64,000 nt of DNA from positions 105 through 64,104 of the forward strand of contig JACQEN010000188.1 of NCBI GenBank assembly GCA_016200585.1, given 5' to 3'. Position 1 is the first letter of the stretch, and each line of letters opens with the position of its first letter. The DNA comes from Deltaproteobacteria bacterium. GTDB taxonomy: Bacteria > Desulfobacterota > Binatia > HRBIN30. The notes beneath the pieces are model-generated. The model was not told where the DNA came from, ran no database searches, and saw nothing but the letters and a program-made list of their open reading frames with translations. Of the stretch, positions 1 through 48,881 are shown one piece after another. The translations under genes were made by a program, and so were the position numbers.

Positions 1-2073
1 GCGACCATTGTATCGATCGCTCCCGATTACAACGCCAGCTCGGTCCACGCCGACCTGTGGGTGAACCCGCGCATCGGCAGCGATGCGGCGCTCGGGCTGT
101 CGATGGCGCAGGTCATCATCAGCGAGAACCTGTTCAAGCCCGAGTACGTGCAGGAGCAAACCGATCTGCCGTTTCTGATCCGCGACGATACCAAGCGCTA
201 CCTGCGCCAGAGCGACATGCAAGCGAAGGGCAAAGACGACGTCTTCTACTTCTGGGACGAAGCCTCGAAGCAAGCGGTCGAGACGCCGGGCAGCGAAGGC
301 AGTCGGACGCAGGACCTGCATCTCGGCTCCATCAAGCCGGCGTTGCACGGAACCTTCACCGTGAAGTTGGCCGACGGCAAGCAAGTCGCCGTGCGGCCCT
401 TGCTCGACGTCCTTGCCGATCATCTGCAGCAGTACACACCGGAGCGTGCGGCGAAGATCACCACCGTCGACGCGGCGACGATCCGCCGTATGGCGCGCGA
501 TATGGCGAAGGCGAAAACGGCGATGATCTTCGCGTCGTGGGGCTCGTGCAAACACTACCACTCGGATCTGATGCAACGCAGCATGTGTCTGCTGATGGCG
601 CTCACCGGCAACCAGGGCAAACGCGGCGGCGGCATCCGTCCGGGGGCGTGGTACAGCATCGATGCGTTGAGCGAGATCTCCAGCGAGGTCGAGGTGCCGT
701 TCTACCAGAAGTTGCTGTTGAAGGTGATGTCGCCGAAGACGCGCGACTTCGAAAACTTCATGACCAAACACAGCTGGGAACGGCCGTTCACGCCGACTCT
801 GCCGTTTCTCTACGTACACGCCGGCATGAACGAGGTGTGCGACCGCAAGGACTTCAACGACCCGGCGTTGCCGCGCGGCGTCGCCGAGTACGTGAAGGAA
901 GCGATGGAGAAGAAGTGGCTGCGCGTTTCGCCGCCGCCCGAGCGTCCCCCGAAGGTGTACTTCTACACCGGAGCCAATCCGTTGCGCCGCTGGCCGGTGC
1001 CGCAGTTGGCGCGCAAGCATCTGTGGCCCAAGCTCGACATGATCGTCAACGTCAACTTCCGCATGTCATCGACCGGACTCGAGTCGGACGTGTTGCTGCC
1101 GGCCGCCGCCTACTACGAGAAGATCGGTCTGAAGTATCCGCAGAGTCTGGTGCCGTACGTCATCTTTGCCGACCAGGCGGTCAAGCCGATGGAAGACGCC
1201 AAAGCCGAGTTCGCCATCTTTGCTCTGCTGGCGCAAAAACTTCAGGAGCGGGCGCGGGCGCGCGACATCAAACCGTTCACGGACCACTACGGCATCGAAC
1301 GCGACTACGCCAACTTCTTCGAGAAATACCGCATGGACGGGTTGATGGAGGTCGGCAACGAAGAAAAGGCGATGGACTTCATGATCCAGAATTCGGCGGT
1401 GACCAAGGGTTTCACCTGGAACGACGCCAAAGCCAAAGGTGCGTTGCCGGTGCAGGCCATCGGCCGTTACGGGCCGCACAACGCGATCTGCAGCGACTTC
1501 GAACCTGGCGACACCGTCTATCCGCAGCGTTGGTTCGTCGAGAAGAAGGAGCCGTGGCCGACGCTTACGGGACGGCAGCAATTCCTTCTCGATCATCCAT
1601 GGTATGTCGAAACCGGCGAGGCTCTACCGGTGCACAAGGACGCGCCGATGGCCGGCGGCAACTATCCGTTGCGTCTCACCGGCGGGCACACGCGCTGGTC
1701 GATCCACGGCATCTGGCGTGATCAGCGGCACCTCCTGCGTCTGCAACGCGGCGAGCCGGTGATGTACATGAACGTCGACGACGCCGAGCACCGCGGCTTG
1801 AAGGATCACGACATGGCGCGGGTGTTCAACGACGTCGGAGCGTTTCACATTCACGTCAAACCCTCGCGTCAGCTGCAGCCCGGCCAAGTGGTCGTGTACC
1901 ACGCCTGGGAGAACCACCAGTTCAAGAACTGGATACAGAGCCAGGAAGCGGTGCCGTCGCCGTGGAAGCCGCAGCACGTCGCCGGCGGCTACGGACACAT
2001 CCACTACCGCATGTTCTCGTACGCGCCGAGCCACGGACCGCGCGGTACGACCGTGGATGTGGAGCGGGCGTAG
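1..2073 (+). CDS. NarG-like (type II DMSO-reductase family) molybdopterin oxidoreductase catalytic subunit, paralog 1; 5' end cut by window edge
   Basis: Frame 1 is open from base 1 (ATIVSIAPDYNASSVHADLWVNPRIG...) into track ORF 61..2073. Collinear with the complete paralogs at 11118 and 17170 (blocks EQTDLPFL, WPTLTGRQQF, GGHTRWSIH, LRLQRGEP, VYHAWE). Confidence 0.85.
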   Translation, partial: ATIVSIAPDYNASSVHADLWVNPRIGSDAALGLSMAQVIISENLFKPEYVQEQTDLPFLIRDDTKRYLRQSDMQAKGKDDVFYFWDEASKQAVETPGSEGSRTQDLHLGSIKPALHGTFTVKLADGKQVAVRPLLDVLADHLQQYTPERAAKITTVDAATIRRMARDMAKAKTAMIFASWGSCKHYHSDLMQRSMCLLMALTGNQGKRGGGIRPGAWYSIDALSEISSEVEVPFYQKLLLKVMSPKTRDFENFMTKHSWERPFTPTLPFLYVHAGMNEVCDRKDFNDPALPRGVAEYVKEAMEKKWLRVSPPPERPPKVYFYTGANPLRRWPVPQLARKHLWPKLDMIVNVNFRMSSTGLESDVLLPAAAYYEKIGLKYPQSLVPYVIFADQAVKPMEDAKAEFAIFALLAQKLQERARARDIKPFTDHYGIERDYANFFEKYRMDGLMEVGNEEKAMDFMIQNSAVTKGFTWNDAKAKGALPVQAIGRYGPHNAICSDFEPGDTVYPQRWFVEKKEPWPTLTGRQQFLLDHPWYVETGEALPVHKDAPMAGGNYPLRLTGGHTRWSIHGIWRDQRHLLRLQRGEPVMYMNVDDAEHRGLKDHDMARVFNDVGAFHIHVKPSRQLQPGQVVVYHAWENHQFKNWIQSQEAVPSPWKPQHVAGGYGHIHYRMFSYAPSHGPRGTTVDVERA

Positions 2074-2169
2074 AGCGGCTTGCGTAGGGCGTCAGGAACC
2101 TGCCGGGTGTGACGCGCTCGGGCTGTGAAAATGAAACTGCAGCGGGTCGTAGCGAACGCCGTCGATCAC

Positions 2170-3582
2170 TCAGGCCGCGGCAACGCGCCGTGCCGGGGCC
2201 TCGCGCCTATCGGCGCTCGACGTCTGTACGGCGAGATGGCGTGCCAGGCGTTTGCCTAGCGCTACCAGCGTAAGCACCGGTGGCAGTCCCCAAGCCTCGG
2301 GGATCACCGAGCAGTCGCAGACGTACAGATTTCGGTAGGCCGTTTGCAGGTTGGCATCGACCAACTGGCCGATCTTTACCGTGCCACCCGGATGCGCCGC
2401 CATGTAGCCGGTCTTGTAGATGTCTGTAGCGCCGGCCTGCCGCAGAATGCGTTTGGCGTTTTCGAAACCGTGTTGCAGCTTCGCGTGGTCGTCTGCACTC
2501 AGCTTCTTGCGCACTCCGCCGTGGTCGGTAAGACGGCCGCCGAGGGTATCCTTCACCTTCACCATGATGCGTGCGGTGCTGCGGAAGTTGAAAAGCTTTG
2601 TCAGGCGTCCAACCTGTGCGCTGAAAGCGAAGTGGGTCGCCGGCGGGATCGCCATGTCGGTCATGATGTATCCCTCATCCTGCAAGTGGATGCCGGCGGA
2701 CATCGGGATCTCGTTGTGACGTAACCTTACATCCTTCATCGTCCCGCAGACCGTGATCAGCGGGTCGAAAAAGAATTCGTTTCCAGCCTCACGGATGCCA
2801 CTGTGGCGCAGGATAACCGGCGAGCCGATCCCGCCGGCGGCCACTACGATGGTCGGCGCACCGATCTTTCGATGTTCCCCGTTCTGAATGAGCTCCACGC
2901 CGGTTGCCGTGTTGTTCTCGACGATCACGCGCGTGACCTTTGCGCCGTTCAGCAACGTCGCTCCTTGAGCCAGTGCCTCCTGCACGTACATCCGCGCGCT
3001 CCACTTCACGCCGTGTGGGTCGCCGTAGTACCCGAACCGGAATTCCGGCTTCCACCGGGCCTGGTCCATGAACTTGTCCAGTCGCCGCCAGTGGAAGCCG
3101 AGCTGTTGCGCGCTCTCCATCAGGCGGTTCGCCATCGGGGTCATCATCTCGTCCTTGAGTGGCCCGATGGGCAGTTCCTTCCAAACCTGTGCGACATCGT
3201 CCGCAAGGTCCACTCCGTAGGATCGCAACATTTCAAGCGGCACGGGAAAGCACGTGGCATAGTAGAAGAGCGAGCTGCCGCCGGTGGTGATGCCGCGCAC
3301 CATGCCCAACATATCAGTTGTCAGCAGCAGGCTCCTTCCGGGAGCCAACAGCTCGCGGCCGTATTGGCCGAGCGTTCCGCGGACCGGCCCTCCGGCGCCC
3401 CACTCCAGGATCAGCACCTTCTTGCCGCGGCTGGACAGTTCCTTTGCGACCGTCGCCCCGCCAGGGCCCGATCCAACTACAATGACGTCGACCGCTGCTG
3501 TACCAGCGCCGTTTATTGAGTGTACCTCCAGGCGAGAAATACACCCAAGGGAGCCTTCGCGCAGCCCCCCCAATGAAGGCAA
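2170..3582 (-). CDS. GMC-family FAD-dependent oxidoreductase
   Basis: Rossmann motif VDVIVVGSGPGGATVAKELSSRGKKVLILEWG and GMC-like C-terminus (HPGGTVKIG, YVCDCSVIP). Start uncertain: TTG at 3582 chosen. Alternatives are GTG 3672 (GTGA overlap with the vapC stop) or the ORF maximum 3792 (would overlap vapC by 124 nt). Confidence 0.8.
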   Translation of the reverse strand: MPSLGGLREGSLGCISRLEVHSINGAGTAAVDVIVVGSGPGGATVAKELSSRGKKVLILEWGAGGPVRGTLGQYGRELLAPGRSLLLTTDMLGMVRGITTGGSSLFYYATCFPVPLEMLRSYGVDLADDVAQVWKELPIGPLKDEMMTPMANRLMESAQQLGFHWRRLDKFMDQARWKPEFRFGYYGDPHGVKWSARMYVQEALAQGATLLNGAKVTRVIVENNTATGVELIQNGEHRKIGAPTIVVAAGGIGSPVILRHSGIREAGNEFFFDPLITVCGTMKDVRLRHNEIPMSAGIHLQDEGYIMTDMAIPPATHFAFSAQVGRLTKLFNFRSTARIMVKVKDTLGGRLTDHGGVRKKLSADDHAKLQHGFENAKRILRQAGATDIYKTGYMAAHPGGTVKIGQLVDANLQTAYRNLYVCDCSVIPEAWGLPPVLTLVALGKRLARHLAVQTSSADRREAPARRVAAA

Positions 3583-3668
3583 CCCGATTCGGGCGGGGAT
3601 TGCATCGACGTTGAATCGCCAGGTTGAAATCAGGCGCCCGTGTACGAGACGGTCCCGTGATCCCGAGA

Positions 3669-4040
3669 TCACAGTTCCAGGGCGAGGTGTGCCGGAAGGT
3701 TGTCGAGCATGGTGCCGTGCGACGTGGCGAGCCGCCAGCCGCGATGGACGGCGTGCGCCGCAATCAGGCGGTCGAATGGATCGCGTGTCCATGTCAGCTC
3801 CAATGCGTGGCCAACTAACGAGGACAGTGTCAGGTCATCAACGGTCCAGCGTGGATCTCCCGCAACCGCGTCGACCGGGTGTGCCGTCGTAAACGTCCCC
3901 CGACCAACTTCTTGGAGAAACTGCAACTCCAATAGGGCGACTGGAGTGAACCGAAGCTTGCCAGCGTACGGACGGAGTGGGCGCGCGCGCCGGTGGCCGG
4001 CGAGCAGAAACAATACGGCGCTGGTATCGAGCAGGATCAT
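3669..4040 (-). CDS. vapC: PIN-domain toxin (VapC-type ribonuclease)
   Basis: 123 aa, MILLDTSAV start with an early acidic residue, LLELQ, and the DPFDRLIAAHA motif typical of PIN toxins. Its ATG overlaps the upstream antitoxin stop (ATGA, 4037-4040). Confidence 0.8.
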   Translation of the reverse strand: MILLDTSAVLFLLAGHRRARPLRPYAGKLRFTPVALLELQFLQEVGRGTFTTAHPVDAVAGDPRWTVDDLTLSSLVGHALELTWTRDPFDRLIAAHAVHRGWRLATSHGTMLDNLPAHLALEL

Positions 4041-4303
4041 CGGGCGCGCTTAGCGCCCCGTGACGTCCGCAAGCGCATGGGCCGGCCTGGCGCGGTCCAC
4101 TCCCAGGTCCAACCGGACTCGAGCAACTGCGGGTCCGTGACCTGGAAGAATGCTTTGACGCGCGCTCTTGGGCTGCGGGGCGTATCCGCCACAAGGCGAA
4201 AGCGCCGACCGCGGCGAGCAATCACAACCGGCTCTCCGCGCTCCGCATGATCAAGGGCACCCGCCAGATGCTCGCGCAACTCGGAGACCGTGTACTGTTT
4301 CAT
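4037..4303 (-). CDS. Phd/YefM-type antitoxin partner of VapC
   Basis: MKQYTVSELREHLAGALDHAERGEPVVIARRGRRFRLV resembles Phd/YefM N-termini. 4-nt overlap with the toxin gene. ATG at 4303 chosen; the track ORF starts at TTG 4321. Confidence 0.7.
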   Translation of the reverse strand: MKQYTVSELREHLAGALDHAERGEPVVIARRGRRFRLVADTPRSPRARVKAFFQVTDPQLLESGWTWEWTAPGRPMRLRTSRGAKRAR

Positions 4304-4306
4304 GCG

Positions 4307-4320
4307 TGTACAAATGTACA
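4307..4320 (-). promoter_or_regulatory. Two TGTACA palindromic hexamers (TGTACA-AA-TGTACA) abutting the antitoxin start; candidate TA autoregulatory operator
   Basis: Read directly at 4307-4320, 4 nt upstream of ATG 4303. TA operons are commonly autoregulated through palindromes at the promoter. Confidence 0.3.
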
Positions 4321-4405
4321 AGAATCAAAAAGCAAAGGCAACGGGATCGGCAGCTCGCGCTCAACGCCTACGTGATTCTACCCCACGACGCAGGACAGAT
4401 TTCCA

Positions 4406-4435
4406 TTGACAAGCGCGGTCGTGGTGTGCTATGCG
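4406..4435 (+). promoter_or_regulatory. Candidate sigma70-type promoter (TTGACA-N18-TATGCG) about 270 nt upstream of the 4709 CDS
   Basis: Perfect -35 hexamer at 4406-4411 and a weak -10 at 4430-4435. No experimental support. Confidence 0.25.
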
Positions 4436-4708
4436 CGGATGGGGCCAAGGGGGGGATCTTACGCGGGTGTTTCATCAAACCCGGTCCGCCTGACCTCTAT
4501 ACGAATGCGCCGGGGTGAACTGCACAACGCTACCAAGATGAGATGGTGATCAAGACGAGTCTGTAGCCGCCCGCAGATCCTCGATCGGTGGGACTGCGGA
4601 AGCGGCATGAGCCCTAGCCGTCTACGGACCACGGAAATTCCGAACGGTGCTACCGAACCCATTGGAGCGCGAAGCGCGCACGGGCAAGAGTTTCAAAGGG
4701 GGGGCAAG

Positions 4709-6574
4709 ATGGACCAGCGGGGAACTGCGCTACGACCTTCTTCGGGGATCTCGTCGACTCACGTGCGCAGTTGCGTCTGCGCAACCATCGGACTGCTAGC
4801 GACGCTATTCGCGGCGGCGGCCGCGCCGGCGCAATTGGCTATCGACGGTGGTCCGGTATACGCCGGCAGTGGTGGTGTGAGCGGCAGTTGTACAATTTCT
4901 GGCTCACCCTGCCTGACAGGCGGGGCGACGATGACCTGCAGTGGGCTCAATCCGGCGTCGTTCCAGAAGCTATATTTTGGCATCAAGAATAGTTCATTCG
5001 TGAACGGTGACAACGAAACGGGTAGCAGTGGCCCTGCCGCCGGGATTAATCAATTCCATTTTGCCAGCACCTCGAGCAACACGATCGTCTACACGGGCTC
5101 GACGACCGTGTTTGATGTTCCGACGGGAACCACGAAGGCGGTCAATACCAGATTGGTTCTCGCCGTCAGCGCCGGAACCGCATCGGTGGTGGCGACCAAT
5201 GGTAGTCCGGCCGGCAACAGCAACGGCGACATAACGGACGTCTTCCAAGTATCGAGCACCAACCTGACCGTGACGGTGAACTTACAGGCGGCGCTGGCTC
5301 CGACCACAGCGAGCGCCAACTCGTGTCCCACAGTGTTCAACCCGGCGGCGACGCGTGATGGTACCGACAAGGATGTCAGCCACGTGGACCTGGCCTTCTA
5401 CTTCCAGAACCTCCCGACGCCGACACCAACGCGAACGCCAACGTTGACTCCAACCCGGACTCCGACTCTTACCGCAACCCGGACGCCGACCAACACGCCG
5501 ACCTCGACGCCGAGCAGCACACCGACGAACACGCCGACCCGTACACCCACGAGCACGCCGTCCAGCACACCAACCAACACACCGAGCAACTCACCGACGC
5601 AGACACCAAGCGATACGCCAACCGAAACCCCGACCGCCTCGCCGACGGACACACCAACAAGCACGCCGACCGAGACGGAGACCGAAACCCCGACCGAAAC
5701 CCCGACAGAGACCCCAACTGACTCTCCGACCGTGACATCGACAAGTCTACCCACCGGCACACCGACAGGTACGCCAACCGCCACGTCCACCCCTACTGTG
5801 ACACGAACGCCGACACGGACGCCGCTCAATTTCACCCCCAACACCGCTACAGCGACGTCTGCGCCAACCGGAACGCCGACCGAGACGCCTACGGAAACGG
5901 TGACCCCGACGCCCAGTGAAACGTTGGCCCCTGGTGTCCCGACCTACACTCCGACGCAGACGCCGACCCAAACTGCGACGCCCGTATCGACACAAACGGC
6001 CACAGATACTCCGACCCCGCTGGGTCAGTGTGCTCTGGCTCCGGTCGCCGGGTGCAAGCTGCCGACGCCGGCGAAGGGCATCTTGTCGCTCAATAGGACC
6101 GCCCTGAATCCCGCCAAACACACAATGTCTTGGAGCTGGTTGAAGGGCGCGGATACGCAGCTCACGGAGCTCGGCGATCCCACCACGGCAACCAACTACA
6201 GGTTGTGTCTCTACGACGGGTCGAACACGTTGATCATGGACGTCTCGGTGCCCGCCGGCGGGCTTTGCGGAACCAACCCGAAGCCGTGCTGGAAATCGAC
6301 GCGCACCGGATTCAAGTACTCGAACCGGCTGGGCACCCCGAACGGAGTCACCAGCGTGCGTTTGCAGTATGGCCCGATCGGTAAGGCGAAGCTCACGATC
6401 AAGGGGAAGGGACTGAATCTCAATCTGCCGGCATTGCCGTTGGCACAATCTCCCAATCCGGTGCGTGTCCAGCTGGTCAACAGCTCGACGACCGCTTGTT
6501 GGGAGGCGAGCTACAGTTCGCCTGCGACCAGCGCGGCTGGTAGCACCTTGAAGTGGAAGGATCGCAATGACTGA
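4709..6574 (+). CDS. Secreted modular protein P1: unassigned N-terminal domain, about 200-aa Pro/Thr linker, Cys-bearing C-terminal module
   Basis: ATG 4709 preceded by AAAGGGGGGG. Signal-like [21 protein letters not shown] linker aa 270-471 of the track ORF. C-terminal module (6029-6571) alignable with the C-terminus of the 40371 protein. Confidence 0.7.
5414..6019 (+). repeat. In-frame Pro/Thr-rich low-complexity linker coding region (xTPT units)
   Basis: Translation is [40 protein letters not shown]... The antisense strand yields the spurious VGV-rich ORFs listed in the track. Confidence 0.9.
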
Positions 6575-6759
6575 GTGGCAGGAGAAGCTGCGGCCGGGTC
6601 GCGCGGCTTTGCCGTCGCCGGCCGGCAACCGGGGCCAAAAGGGGAGAGGTCGAAGGCGCGTCGCATTTGACCTAACACGGTAACGATCAAGGCGTCGCGG
6701 TGGTTTCGCGTTTCGGCTTGGTATAGCCTCGGCGCGCCGAAACGATGCATCTGTAGACC

Positions 6760-9528: not shown

Positions 9529-9556
9529 AGACGCATCTGCGACGTCGATTACAAGC

Positions 9557-11029
9557 ATGATATGCCGGTGTGCCATACAGCTCTCAAGCGATGCCAGGGT
9601 CTCACGACGCGTATTCCCGTCACGGCACCTTCTCCTCCCGTTTGTACTGTCGGCTCTTTTCTTTGCCGGGTGCGGCTCCGAAGCGCCGGTCGAATCTTCG
9701 ACGTCTCGGTCGCCCGGCTATCACACCGACGGCCACATTTTGCGCGACGGACAAGGGCGCGCGATCATCTTGCGCGGCGTCAACCTGCCCAATGATTACG
9801 ATCAGCGCGGACCCGACAAGCAAGTGCGGCCGCCGGCCGAGGTCTTTCACCACATCGCCGACTCGGGCTTCAACGCCGTGCGCTTGGTCATCGAATGGTA
9901 TCAGATCGAAGCGCAGCAGGGAGTCTACAACCAGGCCTACCTGGAGCTGGTGCGACAGCATGTCCAGTGGGCACAGGAAGCTGGGCTGTTTGTCTTCGTC
10001 GACATGCACCAGGACCTCTTCGGCCGTGGCTTTGGCGGCGACGGTGCGCCGTATTGGGCTTGCGATCAATCGTACTACGACAGCTACAAACCCGGCCCGG
10101 TGTTCATTCTTAACTACCTGTCGAGCCAGGTGCGGGCGTGCTTCCAAAAATTCTGGAGTACTCCGGCGCTGCGCCACAGTCACCAGTCGGCGGCGCGCGC
10201 TGCCGCCGAGCTCATCGCCGGCTACGATCATGTACTCGGCTTCGATACGTTCAACGAACCCTCTCTCGGTACGGCCGCAATTCCTGTCTTCGAGCCGTCG
10301 TTGCTGTTGCCGTTTGACGAAGAGTTTGCCGCCTTCGTCGGCGAAGCGATTCCCGGACGCGCCTACTTCTTCGAGCCGACGTTCAGCTTCACCGTGTCGC
10401 GGCAGTGCTTCTTTGAAGGTCCGGTGACCGCCTTCACCGGCGTGTTTGCGCCGCACTACTACAACCCCAGCGTCGAGGGCATGCAGCTGTGGGACGGCGA
10501 CGCAAGCGCCGTGCACGACGTCGTCGCCCTCGCGGCGGACACGGCGCAGCGGCTGCAGGTGCCGTGGATTCTGGGTGAAATGGGCGGCTCGAAATTTACT
10601 CCGAACCTCTCGGAGTATCTGTTCACGTTGTATGGGGAGCTGGACCGGCAGATGGCCGGCGCTTTTCTGTGGCTGTACGAGAAGGGCGACAACGGCTTTC
10701 ACTTGATCGACCAGGCGACCAACGACTGGACCCCGCACGCGCGCGCCTTCCTGCGACCCGTGCCGTCCTTGGTCGCCGGCACACCAACCGCCTTCACGTG
10801 GGACTACGCCGGCGGCGTTTTCCGATTTTCATGGGATGCCGATCCGACTGCCGGGCAGACCGAAATCATTCTGCCTGCGTGGATCGTCCACGTCGGTTTC
10901 GAGGTCAGCGTGAACGGTGCGCCTGTCACTCCTCAGCTCAACGCACGCGGCAACCGCTTGATCCTCCCCGCCGGCCGGCGCGGCTCGACGACGCTCGAGA
11001 TGCACGTCGACGGTCCGTACCCGGGCTAA
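9557..11029 (+). CDS. Glycoside hydrolase family 5 lipoprotein (endoglycoceramidase/cellulase-like)
   Basis: Lipobox LSALFFAGC, ILRGVNL, FNAVRLVIEW, VFVDMHQDLFG...GDGAPYWAC, catalytic-type FNEP and GEMGG motifs. Confidence 0.8.
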   Translation: MICRCAIQLSSDARVSRRVFPSRHLLLPFVLSALFFAGCGSEAPVESSTSRSPGYHTDGHILRDGQGRAIILRGVNLPNDYDQRGPDKQVRPPAEVFHHIADSGFNAVRLVIEWYQIEAQQGVYNQAYLELVRQHVQWAQEAGLFVFVDMHQDLFGRGFGGDGAPYWACDQSYYDSYKPGPVFILNYLSSQVRACFQKFWSTPALRHSHQSAARAAAELIAGYDHVLGFDTFNEPSLGTAAIPVFEPSLLLPFDEEFAAFVGEAIPGRAYFFEPTFSFTVSRQCFFEGPVTAFTGVFAPHYYNPSVEGMQLWDGDASAVHDVVALAADTAQRLQVPWILGEMGGSKFTPNLSEYLFTLYGELDRQMAGAFLWLYEKGDNGFHLIDQATNDWTPHARAFLRPVPSLVAGTPTAFTWDYAGGVFRFSWDADPTAGQTEIILPAWIVHVGFEVSVNGAPVTPQLNARGNRLILPAGRRGSTTLEMHVDGPYPG

Positions 11030-11101
11030 GTCCTTTCGCTTTGCGTTCTCGGAGCCGTGCCTCGCATCACCAAAACATCTGACCTGCGTCATACAGATCA
11101 T

Positions 11102-11124
11102 CCGACCGGTCGGTAGGATGGCGG
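11102..11124 (+). promoter_or_regulatory. Conserved 23-nt element, copy 1 (CCGACCGGTCGGTAGGATGGCGG), upstream of and into the start of NarG-like paralog 2
   Basis: 20/23 identical, ungapped, to 17105-17127. The 5' half is the perfect palindrome CCGACCGGTCGG. Confidence 0.4.
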
Positions 11125-13967
11125 CTGCGATGGCTCGCGGATTCACACGGCGTGACTTCCTACGCGCAACTGGTGCAGCAACCGTAGCGCTCGGACTGAC
11201 GCGTCTGCAGTTCGTCGGCATGGCGCAAGGACAAGTTGCCGGACAGGCGGTGCCGGGTGCGCTTCCAGAATATCGCGCTTGGGAAGATCTGTACCGCCAG
11301 CGCTGGGTCTGGGATCGTGTCGCTCGCGGCACGCACACGATGACCAATTGCGTTTCCGGCTGCGCCTGGGATCTCTACGTCAAGGACGACATGGTGTGGC
11401 GCGAGGAACAGAAGTCGCCGTACACCGCTTCGTCTCCCGGCTTGCCCGACTTCAACCCGCGCGGCTGCCAGAAGGGTGCGTGCGGTTCAAGCTTGATGTA
11501 CTCGCCGTCACGCGTGCGCTATCCGCTGCGGCGCGTCGGCGAACGCGGCGAGGGACGCTGGCAGCGCATATCGTGGGACGAGGCGTTGGCGGCGGTAGCG
11601 AAAGACATGGTCGATGCGATCGACAAGGAAGGTCCGGCCTCGGTGCTCTGCGAGCTCGGACCGAACATTGGTGCCGGACCGAACAGCGCCGCACCGATTC
11701 GCTTCTTCCGCATGCTCGGCTCGCCGGCGACCGATTCGATGGCGCAGATCGGCGACCTTTCCGTCGGCGCGACCATTACGCTCGGCAACGGGCACCCGTG
11801 CGGCTCTTCCGACGACTGGTGGCGCTCGTCGTATCTCGTGCTGTGGGCCTTCAATCCGTCGGCAACGCGCATTCCCGACGCGCACTTTCTCTACGAAGCA
11901 CGCTACCGCGGCGCTAAGCTGGTGACGATTTGTCCCGATCTCAACAACAGCAGCATCCACGCCGATCTGTGGCTCAACCCGCGTCCGGGAACCGATGCGG
12001 CGCTCGCACTCGGCGCCGCACAGGTGATTGTTTCGGAGAACCTCTACAACACCGCGTACGTCGCCGAGCAAACGGATCTGCCGCTGTTGGTGCGCAGTGA
12101 CAACAACCGCTTCGTGCGTGAGTCCGACCTGAAGAAGGGCGGTTCCGACAGCGCCTTCTACGTGTGGGACGCGGCGCGGAAGCAGGTCGTGCCGGCTCCG
12201 GGCAGCGGCAATCTCCAAAGCTTGGACAGCACCGGCATCAAGCCCGACGTGACCTTCAACGGAACGATGAGCATCGGCGGCAAGTCGGTCGCCGTGCGCA
12301 CCGTGTTCTCATTGTTGCGCGAGCGCCTCGACCGCGACTACCGGCCGCAGCAGGTGGCCGAGATCACCGGCGTGTCGGCGGCGGCGGTACAGCAGTTCGC
12401 GCGCGAGTTTGCCCACGCTCCGGCCGCCCTCATCCTGTCGCAGTGGGGTCAGTGCAAGTTCCTCCATGGGGATCTGGCGCAGCGCGCGCAGATTCTTCTG
12501 GCGTCGCTGACCGGAAATCTCGGCCGTGCCGGCGGCGGCTGGCGTGCCGGCGGTTTTTTTGCACCGGAAGGTTTTGCGTTGCTGGGCATGCAGGAGCAGC
12601 TCGGCTTGATGAACCTGGCGACGTTCGCGGCGAAGAACTATCTCGATCCGGCCAAGAGCGAGCAGTCGTTTTCGAGTTACTTCGTGCCCGGTTCGGTGTG
12701 GCACCAGGTGCACGGCGGCCTGGAGGATATCTCCGGCGACGCGCGCCACGGCGACCGAAGCTCGCCCCGTTCGCCAAAGGAATATCTGCACGAAGCGATC
12801 GACAAGAAGTGGTTTCCGGTGTTTCCAGCACCGGGCAAAGCGCCGCACGTCATCCTTTCGATCTTCGGCAATGTCCTGCGCCACTCGCGCAACAACACCA
12901 AGCTGCTCGAGACGTTGTGGCCGAAGGTGAAGCTGGTCGTCGATGTGAACTTCCGCCTGAGCGAGACCAGCCGCTGGTCGGACATCGTGCTGCCCGCTGC
13001 CTTTTGGTACGAGAAGGCCGACCTAAAATACCTGGCGTCGTTCATTCCCTACGTGCACCTCGGCGACCGCGCCGTTGCGCCGCTCGGCGAAGCCAAGCCG
13101 GAGTGGGAGATCTTCGCGTTGCTGGCCGAGGCCGTCGCCAAGGAAGCGCGCCAGCGCGATCTCAAACCGTACACCGACATCGCCGAGGCGCAGCGCGATG
13201 CACGGCGGCTCGACGAGGCGTTCACCGACAGCGGCCGGTTCGGTCCTAAAGACGAAGACAAAGCGCTCGAATTCGTGCTGACGTATTCGAGCCCGACCAA
13301 GAAAGTCTCGCTCGAGGATATGCGTACGGCCGGAGCCGTGCGCTTCCGCAGCACCGGTGCGCCGGGCGGCGCTGCCGGGTTCTACAGCGACTACTCGATG
13401 GACGAGCCGCTGGTGCCGCAGCGCTGGTTCGTCGAGAAGAAGCAACGCTGGCCGACACTTACCGGGCGGCAGCAGTTCTACGTCGACCATCCGTGGTTCC
13501 TGGAATGCGGCGAAGCACTGCCGGTCTACAAACCGCCGCCGCCGGCGGGCGGCGACTATCCGTTGACGCTCAGCGGCGGCCACACGCGCTGGAGCATTCA
13601 CTCACAGTGGCGCGATCACCGTCCGTTGTTGCGCCTGCAGCGCGGCGAGCCGGTGGTCTACATCAGCGAACGCGATGCCGCGGCACGCAACATCAACGAC
13701 AACGATCTGGTGCGTGTGCGCAACGACCTCGGTGCCTTTGTGCTGCGCGCCAAGATTGCGCGCTACGCCCAACCCGGCCAGGTGCTCGTCTACCACGCCT
13801 GGGAGCCGTACCAGTTCCGCGACGGACGCAGCGACCATGCGATCATCCCCAGCCCTTTCAAGCCGACGGCGTTGGTAGGCGACTACGGCCACCTGCACTG
13901 GGGGTACGCCCACTGGGAACCGAACCAGGTCGACCGCGACACAAAGGTCGAGATCGAACGGGTTTGA
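11118..13967 (+). CDS. NarG-like (type II DMSO-reductase family) molybdopterin oxidoreductase catalytic subunit, paralog 2, Tat-exported
   Basis: Twin-arginine signal MARGFTRRDFLRATGAATVALG. H73-x4-C78-x3-C82-x34-C117 FS0-like motif. NarG-like WEDLYRQRWVWDRV. C-terminal GGHTRWSIHSQWRD and YGHLHWGYAHWEPNQVDRD. ATG 11130 is an alternative start. Confidence 0.9.
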   Translation: MAAAMARGFTRRDFLRATGAATVALGLTRLQFVGMAQGQVAGQAVPGALPEYRAWEDLYRQRWVWDRVARGTHTMTNCVSGCAWDLYVKDDMVWREEQKSPYTASSPGLPDFNPRGCQKGACGSSLMYSPSRVRYPLRRVGERGEGRWQRISWDEALAAVAKDMVDAIDKEGPASVLCELGPNIGAGPNSAAPIRFFRMLGSPATDSMAQIGDLSVGATITLGNGHPCGSSDDWWRSSYLVLWAFNPSATRIPDAHFLYEARYRGAKLVTICPDLNNSSIHADLWLNPRPGTDAALALGAAQVIVSENLYNTAYVAEQTDLPLLVRSDNNRFVRESDLKKGGSDSAFYVWDAARKQVVPAPGSGNLQSLDSTGIKPDVTFNGTMSIGGKSVAVRTVFSLLRERLDRDYRPQQVAEITGVSAAAVQQFAREFAHAPAALILSQWGQCKFLHGDLAQRAQILLASLTGNLGRAGGGWRAGGFFAPEGFALLGMQEQLGLMNLATFAAKNYLDPAKSEQSFSSYFVPGSVWHQVHGGLEDISGDARHGDRSSPRSPKEYLHEAIDKKWFPVFPAPGKAPHVILSIFGNVLRHSRNNTKLLETLWPKVKLVVDVNFRLSETSRWSDIVLPAAFWYEKADLKYLASFIPYVHLGDRAVAPLGEAKPEWEIFALLAEAVAKEARQRDLKPYTDIAEAQRDARRLDEAFTDSGRFGPKDEDKALEFVLTYSSPTKKVSLEDMRTAGAVRFRSTGAPGGAAGFYSDYSMDEPLVPQRWFVEKKQRWPTLTGRQQFYVDHPWFLECGEALPVYKPPPPAGGDYPLTLSGGHTRWSIHSQWRDHRPLLRLQRGEPVVYISERDAAARNINDNDLVRVRNDLGAFVLRAKIARYAQPGQVLVYHAWEPYQFRDGRSDHAIIPSPFKPTALVGDYGHLHWGYAHWEPNQVDRDTKVEIERV

Positions 13968-14018
13968 GATCGCATTCTCAGCTGCTGCGGTTGGGGGGCT
14001 GGCGACCGCGACGATTGC

Positions 14019-16838
14019 TCACGGCAAGCAAACCAAGTCGATCAAATCGCCATCGTAGTGACCGGCGCTTGGGTAGAACCGCATGCGCAAACGCTGGCGC
14101 GTCTTCACCAGGTGCCCGCGACTCTTCCTCAACGGCACTTGGATCAAGGCTGGCTGCGAGCAAGTCGTGGTGGTGAGGGCTGGCGAGAACGGGAACTCCT
14201 TGATGGGACAATAGCCGTCGCCACTGCCGATTGTGGTGTCGCAATCGCTCGACAGGGAGCACAATTGCCCGCCGTTCGCGCCGATGCACGTCCCTTGGGA
14301 GGCGGCCCCAACGCTCAGGAGGGAGCTCACGAGTGCATCGCGGTTCCTCTTGTTGAGCTTTTTGTCTTGGGTCGACGGGCCTACGATCATCGCCTTCACG
14401 ACGTTGTTCTGTGAAGCGCAGGCAAAGCGCGTCTCGTGCACGTTGAAGCACATCGACAGCTGGAAGGTGCACGTGTTGTCACCAAGAGAATGGTCGCAAG
14501 ACGGGTCGTTGTTCTTGCACTCCAGGCGTTTGCCAGGCAGCCCTTTCGAATTCAGCGCCGCCGGCGCTTGGGTACACCACTCTTGCAGGCAATCGTTGAC
14601 CTCGGAGTTGCAATAGCCGGGATTGAGATCCGGCGAGTTGCCGGAGCAAAGCGTCGGCGTAGGACTTTGCGCCGGTGTATCTGTGGGTGTCGGCGTTGGC
14701 GTTGGCGAGGTGGAAGCGGTCGGCGACGGTGGACTGGTCGCTGTGTCCGTCGGTGTCGGTGTGCCCGTCGGTGTTGGTGTGTCACTTGCAAGAGGGGTGT
14801 TACTCGGCGTCGGCGTTTCGGTCTGCGTCGGCGAAGACGTATCGGTCGGCGTGACCGTAGGTGTGAACGTTGGCGTTGCCGTCGGTGTGTCGGTCGGCGT
14901 GTTGGTCGGTGTTGGGGGCAGGTACTCGTAGGTGACGCAGATCGTCGCGTTGGCCTGCGTCGAGGCCTGTGTGACGATATTCCCCGCACCTGTGGCCGAG
15001 AAGCTTGCGGTTGCCGTCACCGGGAGCGTGATGACTCCGGGGCCGACGAAATCGCTGACCGGCAGATACGGTGAGCGGACCGCGGTGTTCGACGCCGTCA
15101 CTCCGAGCTGCGTGGCTCCCGAAGTTCCTCCGAAATCGAGGTTGCCGTCGTAGGCGGAGAAATTGAAGTTGAGGTTGTTCGCCGGTAGGGCCACGACCAG
15201 GGGTAAGGTGGGCGGCGTCAGCGAGATCGTCCCTTGGCCGATTGCCGTGACGTTGGCCGGCGACGCATCGAGACTCTCGAGCTTGACGTCCTGAACGATG
15301 GTTGCCGAAACGGAGAGGTCGACGTGGTTCAGCGTGCCCAGCGACGGGTCGAACAAATTCAGATGAACGATATTACTCCAGTTGGTCGTGGTCAGCGAGA
15401 TGCTGTCACACGACACCTGCGTCGTGAACGGCGTGTTGGTTACCGTCGCCGTCTGCGTCGGTGTACCGCTTTGCGTCGGGGTCGAGGTGAAGGTGTTGGT
15501 CGCCGTGCGCGACGGTGTGGCGGTGCGCGTCGGGGTCTGCGTTGCCGTTTGGGTGATGGTCGGTGTGTTCGTCGGCGTATTCGTTAGCGTCGGCGTGTTG
15601 GTAATCGTCGGCGTGTTGGTGATGGTCGGTGTGTTGGTAATCGTCGGTGTGTTGGTGATCGTCGGCGTTTCGGTGATCGTCGGCGTAATCGTCGGCGTGT
15701 TGGTGTTCAATGGCGTATTGGTTGGCGTGCGTGTCCGCGTCGGCGTGCGCGTCGGCGTCTGCGTGCGCGTCGGGGTCTGTGTCGACGTATCGGTGGGCGT
15801 ACCTGTTTGAGTCGGGGTGCCGGTAATCGTTGGCGTGTTGGTGATCGTCGGCGTGTTGGTGATGGTCGGTGTCAGGGTGACGGTCGGCGTATCGGTAACC
15901 GAGGGTGTATTGGTCGGCGTGTTGGTGATCGTCGGTGTGTTGGTAATGGTCGGCGTATTGGTCGGCGTACGCGTCGGCGTTTGTGTCGGCACCAGCGTGA
16001 TCGTCGGGGTATTCGTCGGCGTTCTGGTCGGCGTCTGCGTGCTGGTGACGGTCGGTGTATTGGTGATGGTCGGCGTGGAGCTCGGAGTGCGGGTTGGCGT
16101 TTGCGTCGGCGTGTTGCTCGGCGTGAAGGTCGGTGTCGCCGGCTGATAGGTGTAGTTGACACAAACGGTAACCCCGGCCTTCGTCGACGCCTGGCTGACG
16201 ACGTTGCCGGCGCCACTGGTGCTGAAGCTGGCGACCGACGTGACCGGCATCGTAACGTTGCCCACGCCGCTGAAGTCGCTCATCGGGAGATACGGGGAGC
16301 GTGCTGCACTGCTGCTCGTGCTCACACCCAAGTCGGTGCTTCCCGACGTGCCGCCGAAATCCAGTGTGCCGTCGTAGGCACTGAAGTTATGGGTGACGAT
16401 ATTCGTGGGCGACGTCGCCAGGGTCGGTACCGTCGGCGGCGTCAACGTGATCGTCGCAACTCCGGTGCCGGTGACCGTTGCCGGCTGGGAGTCGAGGCTT
16501 TCCATTTTTACGTCCTGCACCATGGTCGCGTTCATGGTGAGGTCGACGTTGGTCAGGGTACCCAAGGACGGGTCGAATTTGGCGACCGTGACCGACAGCG
16601 ACCAGTTCGTCGTGGTGGAAGGAATGGTGTCGCAACTGGACTGCGTTGCCGCTTCGGCGGAACCGGCGAGCACGAGCGATCCGGCTACGAGCATGAGCAC
16701 GGAAACGATGCTCCCGACTGCTCGCCGCTTGAGCTCACAGTCGACCGGTTTGTTTGCAAGGCGACGCACTGCTTCGTTGTCAACGCACCGTCGCGCTGCG
16801 TCGTCGGAGATACAAATCGTTTTCGCTTTTGCGCCCAT
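14019..16838 (-). CDS. Secreted modular protein P2: two copies of a 164-aa NW...FDPSLGTL...[14 protein letters not shown] domain, two PT linkers, Cys-rich C-terminal module
   Basis: ATG 16838 preceded by GGGGG. Signal-like [26 protein letters not shown]. The duplicated domain is reminiscent (from memory) of choice-of-anchor-type domains of PEP-CTERM proteins. 15 Cys in the last about 209 aa. Confidence 0.75.
14649..14921 (-). repeat. PT linker 2 of P2 (in-frame low complexity)
   Basis: Translation is [43 protein letters not shown]... Confidence 0.9.
14922..15413 (-). repeat. Intragenic domain duplication, copy 2 (aa 491-654 of track ORF)
   Basis: Gap-free alignment with copy 1 gives 103/164 identical residues (hand count). 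Confidence 0.85.
15423..16145 (-). repeat. PT linker 1 of P2 (about 240 aa), including tandem 18-bp units at 15589-15708
   Basis: [18 protein letters not shown]... Five consecutive 18-bp units GTCGGYGTGTTGGTRATS on the + strand at 15589-15678, then degenerate units. Confidence 0.9.
16146..16637 (-). repeat. Intragenic domain duplication, copy 1 (aa 83-246 of track ORF)
   Basis: [28 protein letters not shown]... aligns with [28 protein letters not shown]... over the same length of 164 aa. Confidence 0.85.
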
Positions 16839-17104
16839 GGCTCTACCCCCGATCGCCGTTTCGGCTCCCCCCTCCCACGGCAACTACACTGCCCGGGCGA
16901 GTATCAACGGTGGTGACACAGCGTGTTTCATGCCACCTGCAAGATTTCTGATTTTTCGGATGAAGCGGTGCTCAGCGACGATTCTTGGCCGCTTCAACAC
17001 GTTCGGCGCGTACGTCTCTGAACACCGGGGCAATGCTTCCGTCGTCAGAGGCGCTCGCTGACATCCGTCACATGCTTCTCTGCCCTGCCGCATTCCGGAA
17101 TCTA

Positions 17105-17127
17105 CCGACCGAACGGTAGGAAGGCGG
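17105..17127 (+). promoter_or_regulatory. Conserved 23-nt element, copy 2 (CCGACCGAACGGTAGGAAGGCGG), 42 nt upstream of NarG-like paralog 3
   Basis: 20/23 identical to 11102-11124. Lies in the divergent intergenic region between P2 and paralog 3. Confidence 0.4.
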
Positions 17128-17169
17128 GTAGTATCGCGCTCTCGATGGCGCGCTGCTGGAGGTGTGAGC

Positions 17170-20040
17170 ATGAATGTCACGCGTCGCAACTTCATCTGCT
17201 CGGCCGGAGCCGCAACGCTACTGTTGTCGCTTGATCAACTGACGTTCCAACGCTGCGGCGCAGGCGGAGCGGCGTTGGCCGAGTCGCCGCCGTTGCCGGA
17301 CTATCGCGGCTGGGAGGACGTTTACCGCCAGAAGTGGGCGTGGGACAAAGTCGTGCGCAGCTCGCACTTCGTCAACTGCTGGTACCAGGCGCACTGCGCG
17401 TGGGACGTCTACGTGAAAGACGGCCTGGTGTGGCGCGAAGAGCAAGCCGCCGATTACCCCAAGGTCCGCAGTGACACGCCGGATTTCAACCCACGCGGCT
17501 GTCAGAAGGGTGCTTGCTACAGCGCCCGCATGTACGACCCGACGCGTGTGAAGTATCCACTCAAGCGCGTCGGCGAACGCGGTTCGGGCCAGTGGCAGCG
17601 TTTGTCGTGGGAGCAGGCGCTTAACGAGATCGCCGACCTGATGATCGACACCGTTACCCAGGAGGGAACCGATCGCATCATTTGGTCGCTCGGGCCGCTG
17701 TACACGTTCGGCACACAGGCGGCAGGGCACAGCCGGCTGTCAATGCTGATGGACAGCTCGACGCTCGACATGAACACGGAGATCGGCGACGGCCATCCCG
17801 GCGCGGCCGTCACCTTCGGCAAAATCGTCGCCGAGCGCTCGCTCGATGACTACTTCTTTTCCGACGTGATTCTGATCTGGGGCTGCAACCCGTTGTACAC
17901 GCAGATACCCAACGCGCACTTCTGGACCGAAGCGCGCTACAAGGGCGCCTATATCGTTACCATCGCGCCCGACTTCAACGCTTCAGCCATTCACGCCGAC
18001 CAGTGGGTGCCGTTGAACGTCGGTACCGACGCGGCCTTTGCGCTGTCGCTGGCACAGGTCATCGTCAGCGAGAAGTTGCACAACGAGGCGTTCCTGCGCG
18101 AGCAGACCGACATGCCGTTCCTGGTGCGCAACGACAACGGTCGATTCCTGCGCCAGAGCGATATGGTGAAGGGCGGTTCGAAAGACATCCTCTACGTCTT
18201 CGACGAGAAGACGAAGCAGGTGGTCGAGGCGCCACGCGACACCCTCAATCTCGGGGCGTTGACGCCTGCACTCGAGGGCAGCTTCGATGCGAAGACGTTG
18301 AACGGTACGGTCAAAGTGCGTCCGGTGTTCGCCTTGCTGCGCGAACGGCTCGACCGCGACTACAAGCCGGAGCAGACCGCAGCGACGACGGGAGTCGGCG
18401 CCGCCGTCGTGCGCGACCTGGCACGCCGCATCGGCAAGGCCAAGGCGGTGTCCAACGTCACCTCCAGCAACATCGCCAAGTTCTATCACGGCAACCTGAT
18501 GGAGCGCTCGCAGATCCTGGTATTCGCGCTGTGCGGCCACATGGGCAAGAAGGGCAGCGGCTTCAGCGCCTTTCCGTTCCTGACGCAGGACGGCGTTGAG
18601 ATGTTCGCCATGCTCAAAAGCCCGGGCTGGATGGGCAAGCTCGGTTTGCTGGCGCGGATGTATCCGGTGATCAGTGAGCTCAAGAAGCCCGGCATGACCG
18701 ACGAAATGGTTCGCTACGAAGCCGGTAACTGGCAGTTCCGCGAGGGCGGCTTCGTGTCCGGCGTGATGTTCTGGAACATTCACGGCGGACTGATGGAGCT
18801 GAGCGGACGCTCGAAGGAGTGGGATCCCTATCTGAAGCGGCCGGTGTCGGAGTACATGCACGAGGCACTCGACAAGGGCTACCAGTACGTTTCACCCAAA
18901 CCAGGTACACCGCCGCGCATCATCTTCGAGCTCGGCAGCAACATCGTGCGGCGCTTGCGTGGCTATCCCGCTTTGTTCAAGACACTGTTCCCGAAGCTCA
19001 AGGCCTACGTTACCATCGACTGGCGCATGAGCTCTACCGCGATGGCTTCGGATTACGTGCTACCTGCTGCCGGCTGGTACGAGAAGGCCGAGCACAAGTG
19101 GGGCACGCCGCTGATGCCCTACATTCATGCCGGCACGAAAATCGCCACCTTTCAGGAAGCAAAGCCCGATTGGGAGGTGTGTGCGCTGGTGGCGAAGGCA
19201 GTGCAGGAGCGCGCCAAGGCGCGCGGCATCACGACGTTCAAAGACCGGCACGGCAACGAACGACCGTTGGACAGTTTGTACGACGACTTCACCATGGGCG
19301 GCACGTACACCGAGAACGACGACGAGAAGGTCGCCGCGGTGTTGGTGAAGGAGGCGAGCAACCTCACCGGCGTCGACTGGGAAGAGCTCAAGAAGAAAGG
19401 CTACGCGCGCTTCACCGGCGTGGGAAAAAGCGGTGTGTCGGTGGGCAATCAGTGCGACATCAAACCTGACGACACCGTCAGCCCCTTTCAGTATCACGTC
19501 GAGCAGAAGGCGCCGTACCCGACGCTGACGCGCCGCATCCAGTTCTACATCGACCATCCGTTCTACCTCGAGCTCGGTGAGACGCTGCCGACGCACAAGG
19601 ATCCGCCCAAGTCGGGCGGCGACTATCCGCTGACGTTGACCGGCGGGCACACCCGCTGGTCGATTCACGCCGCCTGGCGCGACGATGCGCGTATGCTGCG
19701 CCTGCAGCGCGGCGAGCCGTTGATGTACGTCAGCGTCGTCGACGCCCAGGCCCGTAACATTGCCGACGGTGATTTGGTCGAGGTGCGCAACGACATCGAC
19801 AGCTTCCACATCCGTGCCAAGACCTCGCCGTCGGTGCGCCCGGGGCAGGTGATCATCTACCACGCCTGGGAGAACTATCAGTTCCGCGACGGCAAGGGTT
19901 TCCAAAACCTCATCCCCAGCCCGATCAACCCCGTCGAGCTCGCCGGAGGCGAGGGACACTTGCGGCCGATTCAGATCTGTCTGCAGCCGAGCCAGAACGA
20001 TCGCGACACCAGAGTCGAGATACGTCGTGTAGCGGCTTGA
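17170..20040 (+). CDS. NarG-like (type II DMSO-reductase family) molybdopterin oxidoreductase catalytic subunit, paralog 3, Tat-exported
   Basis: GGAGG at 17158-17162, 7 nt before ATG 17170 (the track starts at GTG 17164). Tat signal MNVTRRNFICSAGAATLLLSL. H66-x3-C70-x5-C76-x34-C111. GGHTRWSIHAAWRD and LRLQRGEP. Confidence 0.9.
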   Translation: MNVTRRNFICSAGAATLLLSLDQLTFQRCGAGGAALAESPPLPDYRGWEDVYRQKWAWDKVVRSSHFVNCWYQAHCAWDVYVKDGLVWREEQAADYPKVRSDTPDFNPRGCQKGACYSARMYDPTRVKYPLKRVGERGSGQWQRLSWEQALNEIADLMIDTVTQEGTDRIIWSLGPLYTFGTQAAGHSRLSMLMDSSTLDMNTEIGDGHPGAAVTFGKIVAERSLDDYFFSDVILIWGCNPLYTQIPNAHFWTEARYKGAYIVTIAPDFNASAIHADQWVPLNVGTDAAFALSLAQVIVSEKLHNEAFLREQTDMPFLVRNDNGRFLRQSDMVKGGSKDILYVFDEKTKQVVEAPRDTLNLGALTPALEGSFDAKTLNGTVKVRPVFALLRERLDRDYKPEQTAATTGVGAAVVRDLARRIGKAKAVSNVTSSNIAKFYHGNLMERSQILVFALCGHMGKKGSGFSAFPFLTQDGVEMFAMLKSPGWMGKLGLLARMYPVISELKKPGMTDEMVRYEAGNWQFREGGFVSGVMFWNIHGGLMELSGRSKEWDPYLKRPVSEYMHEALDKGYQYVSPKPGTPPRIIFELGSNIVRRLRGYPALFKTLFPKLKAYVTIDWRMSSTAMASDYVLPAAGWYEKAEHKWGTPLMPYIHAGTKIATFQEAKPDWEVCALVAKAVQERAKARGITTFKDRHGNERPLDSLYDDFTMGGTYTENDDEKVAAVLVKEASNLTGVDWEELKKKGYARFTGVGKSGVSVGNQCDIKPDDTVSPFQYHVEQKAPYPTLTRRIQFYIDHPFYLELGETLPTHKDPPKSGGDYPLTLTGGHTRWSIHAAWRDDARMLRLQRGEPLMYVSVVDAQARNIADGDLVEVRNDIDSFHIRAKTSPSVRPGQVIIYHAWENYQFRDGKGFQNLIPSPINPVELAGGEGHLRPIQICLQPSQNDRDTRVEIRRVAA

Positions 20041-35509: not shown

Positions 35510-35614
35510 GTCCCGCACCGGTTCTACGGTTCGCGCGATCGGATTGCAGTAACTGCCCTTGCGGGGTAGCAAGCGCGTAGTTCCATTGCGCTTCGATTCG
35601 AGCAAGGAGTTTCG

Positions 35615-37219: not shown

Positions 37220-37235
37220 TGGAGCGGCCCGCACG

Positions 37236-37703
37236 ATGAGCGAAGAGAACTTTGAGCGTCCGTTTTCGGCGGATGAGCTACGTACATTGACCAGCGTCCT
37301 CGACGAAATCATTCCGCCAAGCGTCGAGCGCAACCTTCCGGGAGCCGGCGAGGCCGGCGTCGCCGCGTACGTCGACGCGGCATTGCGCAAGGCGGTCGAG
37401 TTGCGGCCGGTGATCGTACAGGGGTTGGCGGATCTCGAGGCTCAGGCGCGCAGCCGCTTCGGCCAGAGCTTTGCGGCGCTTTCCAAAACCGAAAAAGGTG
37501 CTTTGCTCAACGAACAGGGATTCATCTTCCCGCTCATGCTGCACGCCTACATCGGCTACTACCAGAATGAGCGCGTCGTCTCGGCTCTCGGCCTGCCGCT
37601 GCGCCCGCCTCATCCGCAAGGCTACGAGATGGAGCGCAGCGATTTGTCGCTGCTCGACGTTGTCCGCCGGCGGCCGAAGATGTTCCGCACGCTGCCGGAA
37701 TAG
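37236..37703 (+). CDS. Gluconate 2-dehydrogenase subunit 3-like small protein
   Basis: FSADELRTLTSVLDEIIPPS...PGAGEAGVAAYVDAAL resembles the small subunit family. No twin-arginine signal visible. Confidence 0.55.
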   Translation: MSEENFERPFSADELRTLTSVLDEIIPPSVERNLPGAGEAGVAAYVDAALRKAVELRPVIVQGLADLEAQARSRFGQSFAALSKTEKGALLNEQGFIFPLMLHAYIGYYQNERVVSALGLPLRPPHPQGYEMERSDLSLLDVVRRRPKMFRTLPE

Positions 37704-48834: not shown

Positions 48835-48881
48835 TCGGTCCGGCGTCAGGTTCAGGGGAAGCCGCCGCGACCTGGACGCTG

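Follow-up and report, generated by a model that had tools for sequence, protein, structure and literature searches.

Introduction

Enzymes of the ethylbenzene dehydrogenase (EBDH) and steroid C25 dehydrogenase (S25DH) type hydroxylate unactivated C-H bonds with water rather than O2. They are in demand for biocatalysis, one use being the synthesis of 25-hydroxyvitamin D3. EbdABC of Aromatoleum aromaticum (PDB 2ivf) is encoded by a single operon, ebdABCD, with one α subunit. The genome of Sterolibacterium denitrificans, the organism of S25DH1-4 and S26DH1, contains eight α paralogues and fewer β and γ genes, and sharing of common β and γ subunits by different α subunits has been suggested for it (PMC6016249). 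Native S25DH1 has the composition α1-β3-γ3, and active S25DH needs the chaperone SdhD, which is separately encoded and cloned (PMC6016249); further paralogues act on distinct substrates, as S26DH1 does (PMC7411048). By this precedent, it is well established for such enzymes that stand-alone α genes can have their partners encoded elsewhere. Here we describe three α-subunit genes, called p1, p2 and p3, in a 64,000-nucleotide stretch of DNA (the window) from Deltaproteobacteria bacterium (GenBank assembly GCA_016200585.1, contig JACQEN010000188.1, positions 105 to 64,104). The genes belong to a known kind of enzyme, of which they are uncharacterised representatives, and they do not reveal a new kind of system. 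Comparison of their sequences indicates that they are probably α isoforms of the EBDH/S25DH type, working by the canonical mechanism and sharing β, γ and δ subunits encoded outside the window.

Like S25DH1-4 and S26DH1, p1, p2 and p3 are type II dimethyl sulfoxide (DMSO) reductases with many α paralogues and an α subunit that bears a twin-arginine translocation (Tat) signal, whereas their host is an uncultured Binatia-like bacterium. Two further features of S25DH are proposed here for p1-p3, namely the use by some α genes of β and γ subunits from another locus (PMC6016249) and a separate NarJ-like chaperone (PMC6016249, PMC7411048). An earlier reading made from the DNA letters alone (the sequence-only reading) had ranked the three genes as the best candidate in the window for an undescribed enzyme system, a description that gives way to the β/γ sharing among α paralogues already published for S25DH (PMC6016249).

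Three α subunits of the type II DMSO reductase family

The sequence-only reading had placed three paralogous α subunits in the window, and both their coordinates (Table 1) and their alignment along the full length were borne out. Identity over the full overlap was 45% between p2 and p3, 44% between p1 and p2, and 42% between p1 and p3, as expected from its view of them as old paralogues and not recent copies. The p3 protein is identical to a protein deposited at NCBI from a metagenome-assembled genome (MAG) named “Deltaproteobacteria bacterium”. That protein lies on a contig of 64,149 bp, of which the window is therefore almost the whole. The gene p1 is truncated by the end of this contig, and its first 265 or so residues, with the Tat signal, the FS0 motif and the molybdenum-ligating Asp, lie beyond the contig start. 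All three proteins matched PF00384 and PF01568 in Pfam, and TIGR03479 (type II DMSO reductase α subunit) was by far the top NCBIfam model for each of them, the alignment spanning positions 1-913 of the 913 model positions in p2 and p3. The best solved-structure match of p3 was EbdA (PDB 2ivf_A), which scored 703 bits and was 41% identical from end to end; homology to 2ivf is unambiguous at the sequence level. EbdA was 33-41% identical to p1-p3. An α subunit of Steroidobacter denitrificans, whose adjacent β subunit is annotated S25dB4, was 39-41% identical to them and serves as the nearest proxy for S25DH. Identity to any characterised enzyme compared was at most 41%. No substrate can be assigned to p1-p3, in agreement with the sequence-only reading. 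Some relatives with 62-77% identity carry the automatic JGI name “steroid C-25 hydroxylase alpha subunit”.

The cofactor ligands were surveyed in an alignment of 138 family members with EbdA. The FS0 ligands H/C/C/C, the molybdenum-ligating Asp and the equivalent of EbdA Lys450 were invariant in 134-138 of the α subunits, p2 and p3 included. In p2 and p3 the FS0 pattern reads H-x3/4-C-x3/5-C followed by NPRGCQKGAC. This His/Cys loop with NPRGCQKGAC and the Asp of the IGD motif, picked out earlier by eye, aligned to the FS0 ligands and to Asp223 of EbdA. The twin-arginine starts noticed earlier on the two complete copies were likewise confirmed, as TRRDFL in p2 and TRRNFI in p3; the p3 Tat signal gave no Pfam or TIGR match at E≤0.01.

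Orthologues in related genomes were 85-89% identical to p1, 81% (locus L030) and 77% (L087) identical to p2, and 77-82% identical to p3; loci in relatives are numbered with the prefix L throughout. The ratio of non-synonymous to synonymous substitution rates (dN/dS, Nei-Gojobori) against orthologues was 0.13-0.15 for p1, 0.12-0.17 for p2 and 0.09-0.15 for p3, and all three genes are under purifying selection. The most conserved part of the protein was the N-terminal FS0 domain, with 90% identity against 83% overall in the comparison with L004, and 79% against 65% overall in the comparison with an operon-linked orthologue. As judged from these low ratios and from the cofactor ligands that have been kept, p1-p3 are functional genes that retain the electron exit cluster.

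Partner genes beside the orthologues in related genomes

A scan with one genome per species gave at least 598 α loci, and 78 loci were mapped from the best 80. A partner gene was present in 42 of 85 distinct loci, and the layout γ-β-α-δ with one to five α genes was that of many mapped loci. The order at L011 was γ-β-α-δ with an α subunit 64% identical to p3. At L010 (the same as L002), γ (EB_dh), β (Fer4_11) and δ (Nitrate_red_del) genes were followed by four α genes and then by genes for a Rieske protein, cytochrome b and cytochrome c, two of the α subunits being 65% identical to p3, one 70% identical to p1 and one 44% identical to p2. In the Myxococcota-type operon of L022, L023, L025, L016 and L027, one p3-like (about 57%), one p1-like (about 52%) and one p2-like (about 55%) α gene were followed by δ, with γ-β in place where the contig extends far enough. 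The sequence-only reading had taken the three genes for orphan α subunits with an unknown electron route, and this was not supported, since orthologues of p1, p2 and p3 share islands or operons with γ, β and δ genes in relatives. The β subunits of these partner sets were 65-67% identical to β subunits annotated as S25DH or S25DH-like, in part putatively, in Sterolibacterium denitrificans and Steroidobacter denitrificans.

The arrangement of the three genes is also shared. On the 26-kb metagenome contig of L087, TetR-γ-β1-δ genes were followed on the opposite strand by β2-α(943)-α(927), then by the p1 orthologue (72%), a Rieske/Fer4/cytochrome b/cytochrome c set and, after it, the orthologues of p2 (77%) and p3 (78%), so that p1, p2 and p3 have the same order and orientation there as in the window. 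The 1.19-Mb contig of L006 likewise showed the order p1 ... p2-p3. A neighbour-joining tree, which was midpoint-rooted with EbdA as its sole characterised reference and gives no placement relative to the Ser, Clr, Ddh, Pcr and Cmd enzymes, contained three orthologue groups with one window gene in each. By these sequence relationships, p1, p2 and p3 belong to an orthologous trio whose members and order are conserved. No description of this trio was found in a literature search, and a search for Binatia or Binatota with these enzymes returned nothing relevant.

The DNA upstream of p1 was compared in 12 p1 orthologues of at least 72% identity with readable upstream DNA. A divergent β gene lay a few hundred bases upstream in 8 of the 12 (L084, L087, L090, L092, L094, L095, L097 and L098; 75-86% identity to p1 in all of these other than L087), or in 7 if L084 and L092 are one population, which is possible. 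Among the four orthologues of at least 85% identity, the β gene was present in three. Beyond the divergent β there were usually one or two further α genes. The present contig breaks off exactly where this β gene lies in relatives. Genes of the NarH or NarJ type directly upstream of paralogue 1 or in linkage elsewhere, which the sequence-only reading had itself named as evidence against orphan subunits, were therefore found in relatives. The upstream β subunit (β2) has 337 amino acids, is 58% identical to β1 and has one or two α genes of its own in a divergent unit; the 943-aa α subunit of this unit clusters with EbdA in the neighbour-joining tree.

Linked and unlinked α genes occurred together in several genomes. 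On the 76-kb contig that carries L082 and L083, a γ-β-δ set without an adjacent α gene was separated by 8.5 kb and six unrelated genes from two α genes, one of which was 77% identical to p3. This α-less set of L082 mirrors the scattered α genes. Partners and α genes were found on one contig in L082/L083, L087 and L094. Among MAGs in which linked and unlinked loci coexist, Maj_2_bin.28 was the clearest case (L021 against L043), while in OFTM73 (L049 against L024 and L028) and Dive96 (L016 against L037 and L041) the linked locus has a δ gene only.

In the relatives, the α islands were flanked by genes for TetR, acyl-CoA dehydrogenase, thiolase, CoA ligase, SnoaL and nitroreductase, and such flanks hint at catabolism of a hydrophobic compound. 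A set of genes for a Rieske protein, a small Fer4 protein, cytochrome b, an unknown protein and a multihaem cytochrome c was repeatedly tied to the α island of relatives, with none of them in the window; this set may be a dedicated electron route.

Discussion

In the proposed mechanism, each α subunit would be matured in the cytoplasm by the NarJ-like δ chaperone, which would insert the cofactor. It would then dock onto a β subunit with four iron-sulfur clusters and be exported together with it through the Tat system by means of the α signal peptide. In the periplasm, electrons would pass from FS0 to β, then to the haem-b γ subunit (EB_dh) and on to c-type cytochromes. The shared partner genes most likely lie just upstream of the truncated p1, elsewhere in the genome, or both; from the relatives we infer both their presence in this genome and their sharing by p1-p3. 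The reaction is assigned only tentatively and may be a water-dependent hydroxylation or dehydrogenation at a C-H bond of a hydrophobic compound (alkyl, isoprenoid or steroid-like). The partnerless look of the window is attributed to the cut contig and to a scattered gene island whose close relatives encode partners nearby; subunits can look like orphans when a contig is truncated and genes are scattered.

Several observations weigh against α isoforms with shared partners. The lack of partner subunits reported earlier for 20 kb held across 64 kb, as β (Fer4_11), γ (EB_dh) and NarJ-like δ were absent from a Pfam scan of every large open reading frame (ORF), and tblastn with the β, γ, δ, TetR, Rieske, cytochrome b and cytochrome c proteins of relatives gave no match in the window. 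Among the 19 loci whose α block is flanked by 8 kb or more on each side, 13 had no β, γ or δ gene, and the 13 include every sampled locus of two Binatia MAGs (JBIOJG01, assembly GCA_044450645.1, and JAXLXM01), which implies that α scattering is real and frequent in the lineage. Four of the 12 p1 orthologues (L085, L086, L091 and L096) had no upstream β gene. The TIGR03479 scores of 927.1 bits for p2, 966.6 bits for p3 and 668.2 bits for the partial p1 are all below the curated cut-off of 984.75, those of p2 and p3 just below it, and the EbdA equivalog NF042978, the second model, gave 487-765 bits, far below its cut-off of 2000. Among solved structures, p2 matched PcrA (594 bits, about 40% identity) marginally better than EbdA (541 bits) in pairwise scores. 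In both p2 and p3, Pro takes the place of EbdA His192. Owing to the sub-cut-off scores, this replacement and the closeness of p2 to PcrA, the chemistry is not established.

The best surviving alternative keeps the canonical α-β-γ architecture and makes at least one of the three, p2 especially, an oxyanion reductase akin to the perchlorate, chlorate, selenate and nitrate reductases. It draws on the PcrA match of p2, on the missing His192, and on the identity of at most 41% both to EbdA and to the Steroidobacter α subunit beside the S25dB4-annotated β. PcrAB (PDB 4ydd, 5e7o) is indeed similar in being a type II DMSO reductase with the Asp ligand and FS0. In contrast, p2 is nearer to p1 and p3 (44-45%) than to PcrA, and p2-type α subunits share operons with hydroxylase-like α subunits of the p1 and p3 types and with an EB_dh γ subunit. 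A pcrC- or pcrD-like context was not found, and the island flanks of relatives (TetR, acyl-CoA dehydrogenase, thiolase, CoA ligase, SnoaL) are typical of hydrophobic-substrate catabolism. At the positions aligned to F164/Y165 of PcrA, which we take to be its aromatic gate, p2 reads S/M, and the gate residues appear to be lacking. An oxyanion reductase is unlikely. NarGHI is more distant: it shares the superfamily, the His/Cys3 FS0 motif, the Asp ligand of molybdenum, and NarH-like β and NarJ-like chaperone partners, but NarG scored only 250-300 bits, is cytoplasmic with about 1,250 amino acids, and its membrane partner is the di-haem NarI and not an EB_dh γ subunit. EbdABC shares the FS0 ligands, Asp223 and Lys450 with the present proteins and the EB_dh family with the γ subunits of their relatives; it differs at His192 and in its one-α operon.

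More improbable still are true stand-alone periplasmic α subunits, whose FS0 electrons would go straight to another acceptor with no β/γ module. The 64 kb without a partner gene would fit them, as would the closest p3 orthologues (79-82%: L004, L005 and L006) and several Binatia loci, which have no β, γ or δ gene within 10 kb. Yet orthologues of p1, p2 and p3 are all co-located or co-operonic with γ-β-δ somewhere, a γ-β-δ set without α exists in a relative (L082), FS0 and the domain around it are the most conserved region, and the contig ends exactly where relatives have β. Unlinked α genes are, moreover, already explained by the precedent of Sterolibacterium denitrificans (PMC6016249). A narrower version, in which some unlinked Binatia-like α subunits (p2 and p3) work without the β-γ module and pass FS0 electrons to a different periplasmic partner, is equally improbable. 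Better supported is a milder version, a conserved set of three different catalytic subunits interchangeable on one γ-β-δ module. Such a set would be a combinatorial system of molybdenum hydroxylases for hydrophobic substrates, widespread among uncultured Binatia and Myxococcota. Decaying or non-functional duplicates left by operon break-up, as the scatter of p1-p3 among unrelated genes and the absence of any non-α neighbour shared with the loci of relatives might suggest, are next to impossible given the intact long ORFs, the G+C content of 0.80-0.85 at third codon positions, the dN/dS of 0.09-0.17 and the full set of retained cofactor ligands; pseudogenes were rejected on dN/dS and ligands together.

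Together with its relatives, the window opens onto a large uncharacterised radiation in uncultured soil and sediment Binatia and Myxococcota, with three conserved α subfamilies and apparently one common electron-transfer module. The radiation therefore offers concrete candidates for new oxygen-independent hydroxylases. A conserved three-α module in these uncultured groups is worth noting and will be no surprise to specialists.

Neighbouring genes and additional features

Table 1. Positions of the α-subunit genes, their motifs and other features in the window and in related loci
Feature	DNA	Position	Strand	Remark
p1	window	1..2073	+	C-terminal 690 aa of type II DMSO reductase α subunit; in frame from base 1
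p2	window	11118..13967	+	complete α subunit, 949 aa
p3	window	17170..20040	+	complete α subunit, 956 aa; alternative GTG start 17164
p2 twin-arginine motif TRRDFL	window	11145..11162	+	TIGR01409 TAT_signal 19.9 bits, cut-off 16.7
p3 twin-arginine motif TRRNFI	window	17179..17196	+	by eye from sequence; hydrophobic stretch follows
p2 FS0 [4Fe-4S] ligands H73, C78, C82, C117 (in NPRGCQKGAC)	window	11334..11483	+	aligned to EbdA H82/C86/C92/C127
p3 FS0 ligands H66, C70, C76, C111	window	17365..17517	+	aligned to EbdA
p2 QIGD, D213, predicted molybdenum-ligating Asp	window	11745..11756	+	EbdA D223, by alignment
p3 EIGD, D207, predicted molybdenum-ligating Asp	window	17779..17790	+	EbdA D223, by alignment
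p1 Lys equivalent to EbdA K450	window	547-567	+	by alignment
GMC-family oxidoreductase, first	window	2170-3792	-	flavoprotein
GMC-family oxidoreductase, second	window	35570-37219	+	flavoprotein
Gluconate 2-dehydrogenase subunit-3-like small subunit	window	37191-37703	+	follows second GMC gene
Pro-Thr protein	window	4607-6574	+	predicted secreted
Pro-Thr protein	window	14019-16883	-	predicted secreted
Stop-to-stop ORF, 1,222 aa	window	45166-48834	+	Fer4_20 and Pyr_redox_2 domains
PMT-like glycosyltransferase ORF	window	48135-50606	+	overlaps the preceding ORF by about 700 nt
γ-β-δ set without adjacent α	L082	9307-11783		GCA_975963745.1, contig CDLTKI010000115.1
Rieske/cytochrome set	L010	21810-22762
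Rieske/cytochrome set	L082	3732-8459
Rieske/cytochrome set	L087	13066-17811
Rieske/cytochrome set	L006	2672-5900
Rieske/cytochrome set	L085	2556-6314
β2 unit	L087	2871-9680	-	also in L094, L095, L098
β2 unit	L084	1-3816	-
Split p1-like and p2-like genes	L006	3-10659		long-read MAG

The neighbours listed in the sequence-only reading (GMC, GH5, Pro-Thr-linker and DUF2339 genes) were found as described. In full, the α genes are accompanied by genes for a GMC oxidoreductase, a response-regulator/PAS/GAF histidine kinase, GH5, two secreted Pro-Thr-linker proteins, DUF2339 and YebC. None of these was syntenic with the α genes among 130 related loci, so the intervening genes are lineage-specific and uninformative on function. 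Of genes that might compare with the catabolic flanks of relatives, the window has only distant ones, at 59-63 kb, for thiolase-like, enoyl-CoA hydratase and flavin monooxygenase proteins; steroid pathway genes were not identified in the window.

In the relatives, the p1-like and p2-like genes of L006 are split into several frames, and these breaks are probably sequencing error and not pseudogenisation. Some loci with Binatia- or Myxococcota-like α subunits bear implausible taxon labels (Enterobacteriaceae, Margulisiibacteriota, Geobacter and Spirochaetales, among L008/L062, L030, L038 and L040), which suggests mis-binning or mislabelling.

The two GMC-family enzymes of the window, the second of which is followed by the small subunit of the gluconate 2-dehydrogenase type, are further dehydrogenases of the periplasmic type with no relation to the α subunits. 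The two Pro-Thr proteins have very long repeat linkers and no Pfam match. In the 954-aa protein, a domain of about 230 residues is duplicated on both sides of the linker and the C-terminus is Cys-rich. The spike in GC and AT skew at 14-16 kb is due to the Pro-Thr repeats.

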